Assembly: GCA_964016885.1 (NCBI GenBank)
Contig: CAXHJY010000941.1
Coordinates: forward strand, 138,109 to 202,108
DNA: 64,000 nt
Reading direction: 5' to 3'
Source: Eledone cirrhosa
Taxonomy: Eukaryota
Shown: positions 1,855-64,000 of the stretch, piece after piece
How positions within the stretch are numbered: the first letter of the stretch is position 1
Layout: each line of letters starts with the position of its first letter
Translations under genes and position numbers: made by a program
The notes under the pieces: generated by a model
What the model was told of the DNA's origin: nothing
Database searches by the model: none
The model's input: the letters and a program-made list of their open reading frames with translations, nothing else

Positions 1855-3014
1855 ATATTTATTAAAATAACAGATTAAAGTTTAAGCAAAGAATCGCTGC
1901 TTTCACCCTTAACGGGATCTTCTGAAACTAACAAAGTCAATCTGTAAACGCAGAACTGGATATTTCAAAAAACCTTGCAACCGGAGGAAGACAGGAAGAC
2001 GATAGTTTGGTTCGTGGTAACGTTCGCTGGCAAAGAACGGGAAAAAACGAATAATACGTCATTAATAGGAGCGGTGAAAAACAATTACGCGCAAAGACAG
2101 AACCACGTTTATGGTATAAAATAGGTCGTAGACTAATGTTCTCTTAGGTGGTGCATAGAGATGTTCTCTGGCAATGAACGAAAAAACGAAGATAATAAGA
2201 CAAATGTGGAGCGTGGAGAACAATAGCACGCAAAGACAAAATCACGTAAATGGTAAGCAGAAGTCGTAGACTAAAATTCTAACTAGAAGACCAAATGAAT
2301 CTCCGCTACAGAGTTAAGAACAAAGTAAATAAATACAATACAGAAGTAATAGAAACAAATAAATACATTCACGCAAACAGATACGTACATACACGCAAAC
2401 AGATACGTACATACACAAGCATACGCAAAACCTTACCATAGGTATACAAAACCACGCACATATAAATATGTGTGTGTGTGTGTATGCTTGTGTACAAATA
2501 AATAAATAATTATATAAACGTATATAAGTAAATAAATACGTATATAACAAGCGCACACGCATACCTACATATAAATACACGAATGTTCGGAGACGTAAGT
2601 CAACTAAAACAAGAAGTACACATATACACACACACACCATACGTACGAACCTGCATACTCACGCAGACGCAAAACTCCCGTATACACATAGCCAAACCCT
2701 AAATACCAGAATATGTAAAAATTATACGCCATAACAGTCAAATATACGTACGAGAAGGTATACATACCTTCACAAAACATATCGTCTTCCTGTCTTCCTC
2801 CGGTTGCAACGTTTTTTGAAATATCCAGTTCTGCGTTTACAGATTGACTTTGTTAGTTTCTGAAGATCCCGTTAAGGGTGAAAGCAGCGATTCTTTGCTT
2901 AAACTTTAATCTGTTATTTTAATAAATATTTGCTCTACGGTTCTTATATATTTGATATATATTTTCCTTATCGAGCCCTCTTTGGATTTTAGTCTTCAAT
3001 TTTATTATTATTAC
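1855..3014. mobile_element. Non-autonomous or truncated PLE-type element with ~150-bp inverted pseudo-LTRs and an ~85-nt tail
   Basis: 1855-2003 is the near-perfect reverse complement of 2780-2929. Both arms carry an HHR motif, an extra tail covers 2930-3014, and TA microsatellite flanks both sides. Confidence 0.8.
2855..2905 (+). ncRNA. Type I hammerhead ribozyme
   Basis: agttt CTGAAGA t-ccc-gttaa-ggg-t GAAA gca-gcgattctt-tgc TT aaact. The mirror copy at 1879-1929 (-) has the core mutated to CAGAAGA. Confidence 0.75.
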
Positions 3015-3455
3015 TATATGTATATATATATATATGATATATATATATGATTATATATGTATATATATGATTATATATGTATATATATGATTATATATGT
3101 ATATATATGATTATATATGTATATATATGATTATACATGTATATATATATGATTATACATGTATATATATATGATTATACATGTATATATATATGATTAT
3201 ACATGTATATATATTTGATTATATATATATATATGATATATATATATATATATGATTATATATGGTTTATATATATGATTATATATGGTTTATATATATG
3301 ATTATATATGGTTTATATATATGATTATATATGGTTTATATATATGATTATATATAGTATATATATATGATTATATATGATATATATATATATATGATTA
3401 TATATGATATATATATATGTATATATATATATATGTATGTATATATATATATGTA

Positions 3456-3590
3456 GTGAAGGTGCATGGCTGAGTGGTAAGAGAATTGGATTCACAATCA
3501 TGAGGCTGTAAGTTCGATTCCTGGACCGGGTGATGCGTTATGTCCTTGAACAAGACACTTTATTTCACGTTGCTCCTTCTAGCTGGAGTT
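3456..3590 (+). mobile_element. tRNA-derived SINE with CORE-like domain, 3'-truncated
   Basis: A box tggctgagtgg and B box gttcgattc, then tgtccttgaacaagacactttatttcac, which resembles the CORE (MIR/OR2-type) domain. Related copies lie at 14827, 21462 (-) and 23412. Confidence 0.75.
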
Positions 3591-61000: not shown

Positions 61001-62190
61001 ATATACTATATATATATACTATATATATATACTATATATATATACTATATATATATATACTATATATATATACTATATATATACTATATATATATACTAT
61101 ATATATATACTATATATATATACTATATATATATACTATATATATATACTATATATATATACTATATATTATACTATATATATATACTATATATATATAC
61201 TATATATATATATACTATATATATATATATATATATATACTATATATATATACTATATATATATACTATATATATATACTATATATATATATACTATATA
61301 TATATACTATATATATATATACTATATATATATATACTATATATACTATATATATATATATATATAGTATATATATATATATATATATATATATATATAT
61401 AATATATATATATATATATATATATATATACTATATATACTATATATATATATATATATAGTATATATATATATATATATATATATATATATATATATAT
61501 ACTATATATATACTATATATATATATATATTATATATATATATATATACTATATATACTATATATATATATATATAGTATATATTATATATATATATATA
61601 TTATATATAATATATATATACTATATATATACTATATATATATATATATATAGTATATATATATATATATATATTATATATATATATATATATATATATA
61701 CTATATACTATATATATATATATATATAGTATATATATATATATATATATATATATACTATATATATATATATATATATACTATATATATATATATATAC
61801 TATATATACTATATATATATTATATATATATAGTATATATATATATATATACTATATATATATATATATATATAGTATATTATATATATATATATATATA
61901 TATATATATATATATATATATATATATATATATATATACTATATATATATATATAGTATATATATATATATATATATATAGTATATATATATATAATATA
62001 TATATATATATATATATACTATATATATATATATACTATATATACTATATATACTATATATATATATTATAGTATATATATATATATATATATATATATA
62101 TTATATATATAATATATATATATGATATACTATATACTATATATATATATATATATAGATATAATATCTATATATATATATATGATATAT
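58031..62190. repeat. ~4.2-kb (TA)n array with periodic C (occasionally G) interruptions
   Basis: Read directly. The exact length and the interruptions may be affected by long-read error. Confidence 0.97.
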
Positions 62191-64000
62191 GAATATAGAC
62201 ATAGAATATTCGAAAATATTCTGTATGTTTATAATAAACATTTTGAAGACCTAATCGCTATAGAATAGAATACGTCACGTATTACAATTAGATTCTCGAT
62301 AAAAGCAAGGGAAGTAATCTACGCGTTTCATTCTTGTTAGAAATCATCAGGACTACATATCCAGTGCTTTTATCGAGAATGACACAGCTAGAGACTTATA
62401 GAATACTTAGCTGTGCCACAGGAACTGGTTTGAAAGAGCGGTTGCCGGTCCGGCAGAAATTAGAAATTGGAATAAATGCTCTGAAATAGCGATATATATG
62501 TGAATATAGACATAGAATATTCGAAAATATTCTGTATGTTTATAATAAACATTTTGAAGACCTAATCGCTATAGAATAGAATACGTCACGTATTACAATT
62601 AGATTCTCGATAAAAGCAAGGGAAGTAATCTACGCGTTTCATTCTTGTTAGAAATCATCAGGACTACTGTATCCAGTGCTTTTATCGAGAATGACACAGC
62701 TAGAGACTTATAGAATACTTAGCTTGTGCACAGGAACTGGTTTGAAAGAGCGGTTGCCGGTCCGGCAGAAATTAGAAATTGGAATAAATGCTCTGAAATA
62801 GCGATATATATGTGAATATAGACATAGAATATTCGAAAATATTCTGTATGTTTATAATAAACATTTTGAAGACCTAATCGCTATAGAATAGAATACGTCA
62901 CGTATTACAATTAGATTCTCGATAAAAGCAAGGGAAGTAATCTACGCGTTTCATTCTTGTTAGAAAATCATCAGGACTACATATCCAGTGCTTTTATCGA
63001 GAATGACACAGCTAGAGACTTATAGAATACTTAGCTGTGCACAGGAACTGGTTTGAAAGAGCGGTTGCCGGTCCGGCAGAAATTAGAAATTGGAATAAAT
63101 GCTCTGAAATAGCGATATATATGTGAATATAGACATAGAATATTCGAAAATATTCTGTATGTTTATAATAAACATTTTGAAGACCTAATCGCTATAGAAT
63201 AGAATACGTCACGTATTACAATTAGATTCTCGATAAAAGCAATGGAAGTAAGCTCCGTTCATTCTTGTTAAGAATGCAACGCGTAGATTACATATCCATT
63301 GCTTTTATCGAGAATGACAAAGCTAGAGACTATAGAATACTTAGCTGTGCCAGGAACTAGGTTTGAAAGAGCGGTTGCCGGTCCTGGCAGAAATAGATAT
63401 TGAATAAATGCTCTGAAATAGCGATATATATGTGAATATAACATAGATATTCGAATATTTCAGTATGATTTATTCAATTACAACATTTTGAAGGACGGCT
63501 AATCGCTATAGAATCAGATTACGTCACGTAATTACTAAGTTAGATTCTCGATAAAAGCACTGGATATGTAGTCCTGATGATTTCTAACAAGAATGAAACG
63601 CGTAGATTACTTCCCTTGCTTTTATCGAGAATCTAATTGTAATACGTGACGTATTCTATTCTATAGCGATTAGGTCTTCAAAATATACTCAGTGATAAAC
63701 ATAGCAGAATATTTTCGAATATTCTATGTCTATATTCACATATATATCGCTATTTCAGAGCATTTATTCCAATTTCTAATTTCTGCGGACGCGCAACCCG
63801 CTCTTTCAAACCAGTTCCTGTGCACAGCTAAGTATTTCTATAAGTCTCTAGCTGTGTCATCTCGATAAAAGCACTGGATATGTATCCTGATGATTTCTAA
63901 CAAGAATGAAACGCGTAGATTTACTTCCCTTGCTTTTATCGAGAATCTAATTGTAATAACGTGACGTATTCTATTCTAGTTAAGCGATTAGGTCTTCAAA
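62191..64000. repeat. ~311-bp hammerhead-containing tandem array (non-LTR retrozyme-like), with orientation reversal near 63545-63559
   Basis: Unit starts (gaatatagac) fall at 62191, 62502, 62814, 63125 and 63434 (degraded). From ~63560 the same unit continues as its reverse complement to the window end. Confidence 0.92.
62292..62380 (-). ncRNA. Minimal type I hammerhead ribozyme with extended stem I (one per array unit)
   Basis: The minus-strand core at 62314-62356 reads gtagtc CTGATGA t-ttct-aaca-agaa-t GAAA cgcg TA gattac. It is enclosed by a perfect 16-bp helix, attctcgataaaagca/tgcttttatcgagaat. Further copies lie at 62625-62667 (-), 62937-62980 (-), 63568-63610 (+) and 63882-63924 (+). 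Confidence 0.9.

Follow-up and report, generated by a model that had tools for sequence, protein, structure and literature searches.

Why inverted insertions of Penelope-like elements (PLEs) carry a tail on one side alone, and what chooses the sites at which their reverse transcription starts, are questions called open in the passages of PMC11167929 and PMC8557442 that deal with them. They are raised again by a 64,000-nucleotide stretch of the Eledone cirrhosa genome (contig CAXHJY010000941.1, positions 138,109 to 202,108, forward strand; hereafter the window), which belongs to a 3.0-Gb animal assembly and abounds in TA microsatellites and fragments of long interspersed nuclear elements (LINEs). 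Our analyses show that PLEs of the Hydra clade carry two similar bulged hairpins, H1 and H2, that insertions mostly end just before H1 (short ends) or just before H2 (long ends), and that outward-facing ends pair almost always as one of each kind. The architecture, the end positions, their pairing and the covariation of the stems are established directly here. We put at about two in three the probability that the hairpins are likely binding sites in the sense RNA that place two starts of the reverse transcriptase (RT), one likely on each side of a cut (TA)n target.

When the window was scanned for hammerhead boxes, cores turned up in five types of repeat, namely A (4545-4968), B (50479-53715), C (1855-3014), D (the array from 62190) and E (476-692 and 7819), while F denotes a tail-only insert at 5420. 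Each of A, B and C is an inverted repeat with extra nucleotides in one arm, starting at a bulged stem. The features of A, B, C, E and F are as follows, ORF standing for open reading frame and UTR for untranslated region.

4545..4632, minus strand: family A tail, running from H1 to the position right before H2 and lying outside the perfect inverted arms 4633-4800 and 4801-4968
4604..4628, minus strand: hairpin H1 of family A, with bulged stem
4686..4733, minus strand: type I hammerhead core of the family A long arm
4801..4968, plus strand: family A short arm, with hammerhead core at 4868-4915, stopping just before H1
1855..2011, minus strand: family C short arm (inverted), with variant hammerhead core at 1900-1924
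2772..3014, plus strand: family C long arm, with hammerhead core at 2860-2884 and tail at 2930-3014
2932..2976, plus strand: hairpin H1 of family C
50479..50864, minus strand: family B inverted long arm, with hammerhead core at 50625-50667 and tail at 50479-50561
50541..50560, minus strand: hairpin H1 of family B
50865..53715, plus strand: 5'-truncated family B body, with the last 417 codons of the 737-amino-acid ORF (to 52118), then the 3' UTR
Within 50865..53715, plus strand: 3' part of the family B body, with hammerhead core at 53610-53652 and a short end just before H1
508..621, plus strand: family E, with degenerate hammerhead core at 508-531, H1 at 560-578 and a tail of about 60 nt
5400..5547, plus strand: tail-only insert F, with H1 at 5421-5453 and a tail of about 128 nt, 71-80% like families I and J

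The initial annotation had recorded extra tails of about 88, 87 and 85 nt in A, B and C, which we measured at 88 nt (4545-4632), about 83-87 nt (from 50479, where TA microhomology blurs the junction) and 85 nt (2930-3014), and it had rightly observed that the tail-less arms stop in AT-rich bases right before the hairpin, as is seen in all three. Its bulged stem is present in five of its six examples (560-578, 2932-2976 and 5421-5453 on the plus strand, 4604-4628 and 50541-50560 on the minus strand); the sixth, a stem proposed for the array, is not among the 13 motif matches in the window. It had placed the hairpin 25-45 nt past the hammerhead, which by our estimate fits the distance of 58-68 nt from GAAA box to H1, found in the six of seven reference families in which it was measured (all but C), if counted from the end of helix I. 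A tail of about 85 nt shared by all elements is contradicted by E (about 60 nt), F (about 128 nt) and family J (166 nt). A second copy of E, at 7819-7880 on the plus strand, has an intact hammerhead core and a deletion of the 3' half of H1, its end still lying near the long site, and at 590-692 the E tail end is repeated in inverted orientation, tail to tail, across a CA/TG microsatellite.

Judged by motifs and architecture, the twin-hairpin elements are Hydra-clade PLEs. The full-length family B protein is encoded by a single ORF of 737 amino acids, RT being followed by a C-terminal GIY-YIG domain, of which a GIY-YIG-like VY...YVG could be read from the sequence; Pfam returned no domain match for the 5'-truncated B ORF of the window. 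RWR and SDKT (an RWK-like motif, and DKG changed to DKT) occur in this protein and in the ORFs of A and C, and the B protein also has CNCRDRSKC (linker CxCx5C), CDLC (CxxC) and CKH (CxH). Its closest named homologues come from Argonauta hians (about 39%). Family B is young, its ORF having at least 100 matches at 99-100% identity among the matches listed in its own genome. The initial annotation had called the elements unrelated, but A and C read through into ORFs of Hydra type, as B continues into one of the same clade, and the seven families of this genome form one branch of the protein tree. Hammerheads in the terminal repeat and insertion into (TA)n are both present, and long 3' UTRs bring the tandem period to about 4.0 kb in B and 4.2 kb in J. 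Hammerhead cores are variant in C, I and J, young families that carry CAGAAGA in most C copies inspected (L337-L343) and CCGAAGA in I and J (L099-L138), and here cleavage may be lost or altered.

Full-length copies have the order hammerhead, H1, H2, ATG, so that both hairpins precede the start codon. The hairpin motif reads 5'-(G/A/U)CUC-[C/U...G/A]-U(U/C/A)-GAG(C/U/A), usually followed by ACU or GCU. In a tandem full-length copy of B the tail runs directly into the second stem, 91 nt past H1 and 39 nt before the ATG. Read-through into the 5' half of H2, predicted for A and C, gave 275 and 175 pattern matches in the genome respectively, against none with either reversed-pattern control, and at the loci inspected there was an ORF as well as the full H2 stem, which in some copies has point changes. 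Families G, H, I, J and K, retrieved by protein search, likewise possess both hairpins, and the spacing of H1 and H2 across families of this genome is 89-167 nt. Among metagenome loci from other animals, 28 of 78 have two hairpins before the ATG, spaced 55-83 nt apart (two mis-anchored values, 8 and 37, were left out), and H2 lies 37-69 nt from the ATG in 27 of these 28. Position, and not occurrence, carries the signal, since the loose motif is near chance level in the window: its 13 matches compare with a mean of 7.1 and a maximum of 15 in 30 shuffles, which is not significant, and occurrence alone was rejected as a criterion. The strict motif has 48 matches in 8.8 kb of 5' leaders vs 2 in 71 kb of the same ORFs. 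Rfam covariance models assigned no family to the window hairpins, nor to hairpins in 10 metagenome loci (one chance match). One metagenome subclade (L185, L206, L210) has a U-A outer pair, in both hairpins of L185 and L210 and in H1 alone of L206, which suggests from the sequences that its H1 and H2 change in concert.

To map insertion ends without bias, we selected 40 copies each of B and J by ORF match alone and examined their 3' regions; the second row of L246, a diverged subfamily, was left out. All 78 ends that could be located among these 80 copies fall at the H1 or the H2 site, and none between. Family B, with a spacing of 91 nt, contributed 39 of 40 (20 long, 18 short and one copy with both), the unlocated copy being interrupted by a D array; family J, with a spacing of 166 nt, also contributed 39 of 40 (19 long, 20 short), its remaining copy lying at a gap. 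Short ends are found 3-7 nt before H1, although alignments of B extend to +1 through TA microhomology, and long ends 3-10 nt before H2; overall, ends lie mostly 0-10 nt before one hairpin or the other. By eye, 18 loci of family G chosen with the Rfam hammerhead model divide into 8 long and 10 short, and of 17 non-edge ends of metagenome relatives 14 fall at the H1 or H2 site (left out were contig-edge ends, a duplicate L154 row and one inner junction of L160; L184 was re-anchored by eye). Tail length therefore equals the spacing of H1 and H2, and a fixed 85-nt tail is ruled out by the end mapping, tails ranging from 55 to 167 nt.

Two loci consist of the hairpin region without the rest of the element. 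In L392:373-1143 (G000:C4:42382500-42384000) the 91-nt tail of family C stands by itself in eight tandem copies, pre-H2 bases being joined to pre-H1 bases, with a short-ended inverted arm at the left; this suggests repeated copying or a tiny circle. L393:170-1352 (G000:C2:61196300-61197900) is built of a hammerhead-less 151-nt tandem unit comprising H1, tail and H2, with one end at the H2 site and the opposite end 37 nt before H1.

Pairing was scored for outward-facing ends of one family within 16 kb, and 36 of 38 pairs consist of one long and one short end. All 16 pairs from the ORF-chosen B and J copies are of this kind, an outcome with probability 2^-16 under independent 50:50 choice. B, J and the 18 G loci were chosen independently of their ends, whereas tailed or read-through copies were the basis for choosing the loci of A, E and C; rows scored as 'other' are mostly cross-family or subfamily alignment breaks. 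So strict a pairing argues that both ends come from one event. Outer ends are fixed and inner junctions variable; inner starts of long arms, counted in view of the idea that the enzyme copying that arm might stop at H1, fall at the H1 site in 6 of 42 cases vs about 3 expected, by a rough estimate. At 4 of 20 J short ends we saw, by eye, re-copied 9-mers, and fixed ends, variable inner junctions and re-copied 9-mers together fit initiation. The J junctions L258, L261, L268, L282, L275 and L288 have 2-4 tandem copies of the last 9 template bases, and in L288 the duplication sits in a copy reading through H1.

Covariation of the stems was assessed in 35 families, defined by clustering at 70% protein identity, from anchors picked irrespective of pairing, and 33 of 85 loci, having no recognisable ORF start, were left out of this test. 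With the bulge set to 2 nt, 49 of 58 anchors have a Watson-Crick first upper pair, whereas bulges of 0, 1, 3 and 4 nt give 2, 2, 11 and 12 of 58 and the ORF control 10 of 56 (permutation p<1e-4), and the second and third upper pairs are likewise above permutation. For H1 alone, the first upper pair is Watson-Crick in 26 of 31 vs 14.1 permuted; it is U-A in 16 and C-G in 10 of 28 and changes between these two types 6 times along a FastTree protein tree, while the outer pair has three types and changes 3 times, these being counts of events in related families and not independent samples. The second pair of H2 is also above permutation (p=0.0015). Conservation at the sequence level is seen in the CUC/GAG core, the bulge U and the 3' flank, and would be expected of a protein site. 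The covariation that the initial annotation had proposed to look for is accordingly significant at the 2-nt bulge; its idea of a cis signal with two end positions gains from the covariation and the end mapping, while that of one hairpin serving as a constant ruler for both ends is not borne out: in full-length copies a second hairpin follows the tail end closely, and tail length goes with the spacing and is no fixed 85 nt across families.

Several observations weigh against placement of RT starts by sense-RNA hairpins. The first upper pair of H2 alone is nearly invariant (28 Watson-Crick vs 26.4 permuted, p=0.13). The folding strand is weakly determined: by eye, in correctly anchored rows, the two tightest variable pairs include 4 G-U and 0 A-C, and both G-U and A-C occur higher in the stem. 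Taken singly, the hairpins fold weakly (for the window tails, z runs from +0.83 to -3.66), and H2 of A and C is absent from the predicted minimum-energy fold. Of 36 family representatives, 24 yielded both hairpins, many of the others having short leaders, and no read-through to H2 was found for family E, whose pattern gave 13 scattered matches, none real among the 10 inspected and one being an adjoining family C insertion. Of the 17 metagenome ends, 3 lie elsewhere, as does the L393 end 37 nt before H1, and same-kind pairs exist, amounting to 2 of 38 overall and, by eye, 2 of 10 in family E (8 of 10 mixed). Array D pairs its ends in the same manner without the motif, and binding of the hairpins and priming beside them by a Hydra protein are predictions.

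The weakness of the strand evidence gives room to another view, which we hold to be unlikely: that the hairpins work at the level of DNA, whether complementary DNA (cDNA) or a stem extruded from it, or else on antisense template, the ends then being endonuclease cuts or stop points and not starts. Craig 2021 (PMC8557442), where it treats tails, attributes them to endonuclease-mediated resolution, the endonuclease of Drosophila Penelope, according to work cited in a passage of PMC11167929, required the tail in DNA form, and a passage of PMC3846280 proposes antisense templates. Yet starts on sense RNA in vitro match genomic tail ends in a Poseidon element (PMC11167929, in the relevant passages), template is re-copied and TA microhomology occurs at fixed ends, and a copy ending next to a hairpin lacks that hairpin, as it should if the site lies 3' of a start. 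It is quite unlikely that the transcript is cleaved immediately 5' of each hairpin by a nuclease of the host or the element, ordinary priming at the 3' end following: sharp ends a few bases before a conserved structure would fit a processing site too, but the Poseidon enzyme, as described in those passages of PMC11167929, starts internally regardless of the RNA 3' end, and independently cut RNAs alone would not yield mixed ends in 16 of 16 unbiased pairs. Very unlikely, finally, is that AU-rich microhomology with (TA)n alone sets the ends, the hairpins being kept for another job such as cap-independent translation, for although ends merge into TA runs and the distance from H2 to the ATG is fairly constant, a longer alternating AT run in B at H1-66..-57 is passed by 39 of 40 copies, the AT runs inside the H1 loop of C hold 0 of 19 ends, G has no alternating AT run of 5 or more at either end, and the long end tracks H2 across spacings of 55-167 nt.

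The array at the end of the window stands outside the twin-hairpin system:

62190..64000, minus strand as far as 63559 and inverted beyond it: array D, a hammerhead array in tandem with a 311-nt unit

Its relatives end at +0..9 or +30..37 from the window's array end, giving a tail of about 30-37 nt, and the window array stops at the short site, contrary to the earlier claim that it ends some 83 nt past a hairpin; with this tail and no motif, D was rejected as a twin-hairpin member. It nevertheless pairs one end of each kind in 4 of 4 cases, and pairing as such consequently needs no hairpin of this type. From its own sequence D fits a retrozyme of the non-LTR type (LTR, long terminal repeat), with tandem units, one type I hammerhead in each and no ORF, like the units of about 300 nt described for such elements in the relevant passages of PMC7229834 and bioRxiv 10.64898/2026.07.22.740005, which map neither ends nor a hairpin signal; D itself has no twin hairpin. 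A second control was a single non-Hydra GIY-YIG family with hammerhead, represented by 12 of 150 matches chosen for long open frames, in which the motif occurs in 0 of 12 loci and two end classes lie about 58 nt apart. By this small comparison of one non-Hydra family and D, the twin hairpin looks clade-specific. In read-through copies of the non-Hydra family (L380-L391; a related fragment lies at 22301-22663 of the window, minus strand) the same short motif, ATATCG, follows both ends, and a similar short motif is found at the short end of D. D is adjoined at 58032-62190 by about 4 kb of interrupted TA microsatellite, and several fragments in both orientations, from a family of LINE-type RTs that has a zinc-finger-like insert, lie at 8252-14501, 44657-49800 and 54374-56282.

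If the sense-RNA hairpins do place two starts, a tandem or circular transcript would supply both, and one protein copy would bind each. The endonuclease would cut both strands of TA repeats, and each 3'-OH would prime on the AU-rich template just 5' of a hairpin, which would leave that hairpin uncopied; the two cDNAs would then be joined internally at varying positions, and the product would be an inverted repeat tailed at one side alone. The predicted model of the B protein (predicted local distance difference test score, pLDDT, 88.7) has telomerase RTs as its best fold matches (Z 17.2, root-mean-square deviation 4.1, 305 aligned, residues 1-488), while group II intron and diversity-generating retroelement (DGR) enzymes align only from about residue 52, and this model suggests that the N-terminal part may bind RNA. 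We offer more tentatively the wider proposal that two RNA handles on one transcript load two telomerase-like enzymes that prime both sides of one break, the H1-H2 cassette alone being the mobilisation signal; the latter part is drawn from the existence of the hammerhead-less 151-nt array and the 91-nt tail-only array. Were it true, other clades would use other duplicated handles, as the non-Hydra family repeats a short motif at both ends, and tail length would be programmable by hairpin spacing.

The element class, the hammerheads, the tails and the two start sites are known already. Passages of PMC8557442 describe the Hydra clade with RWK-like, DKT, CxCx5C, CxxC and CxH motifs, C-terminal GIY-YIG, hammerhead, (TA)n targets and tandem and inverted copies, all of which the present elements share, and note for PLEs both the two end classes and the tail usually on one side that are also seen here. 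They give tails of 30-40 bp, a range that only D fits, whereas tails here are 55-167 nt and set by two hairpins; a length 'generally <3 kb', a tendency, is exceeded by B and J. The main text of PMC8557442, as accessible, contains neither 'hairpin' nor 'stem-loop', while in the consensus set of its supplement, in the part available, a clean hairpin was seen by eye in 3 of 6 new sequences, Hydra-1_Ajap starting at H1 and having H2 before its ATG. For PAc, the Poseidon element of Anolis carolinensis, the passages of Frangieh et al. 2024 (PMC11167929) report two internal start sites on sense RNA whose distance equals the tail, an AT-rich target cut on both strands, a predicted dimer, a need for RNA to +172 and hammerhead activity that is dispensable in vitro. 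The starts of PAc lie within one AC-rich stem-loop inside the ORF, whereas in the present elements each site is followed on its 3' side by a conserved hairpin of the 5' leader; by eye the PAc RNA of Fig. S1B shows no twin-hairpin motif, and those passages describe no duplicated signal. The initial annotation knew of no description of its signal: two alternative priming points are published for the Poseidon element (PMC11167929, in those passages), but for the twin hairpin and the spacing rule we found none in the accessible literature or in Rfam.

The twin hairpin adds a defined, clade-wide RNA signal with a sharp rule, by which the tail equals the spacing and an insertion has one end of each kind. 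It would give a simple marker for annotating the ends of Hydra elements, and, for the closest mobile relatives of telomerase, a minimal model of how RNA positions priming. In telomerase, TERT is bound to stems of its own RNA, stems beside a short template place an internal start, and short stretches of template are re-copied. The telomerase ribonucleoprotein offers the closest predicted fold to the B protein, and the likeness is one of positioning alone and not of membership: telomerase copies one template repeatedly, whereas the elements described here combine two stems on a mobile RNA with an endonuclease.

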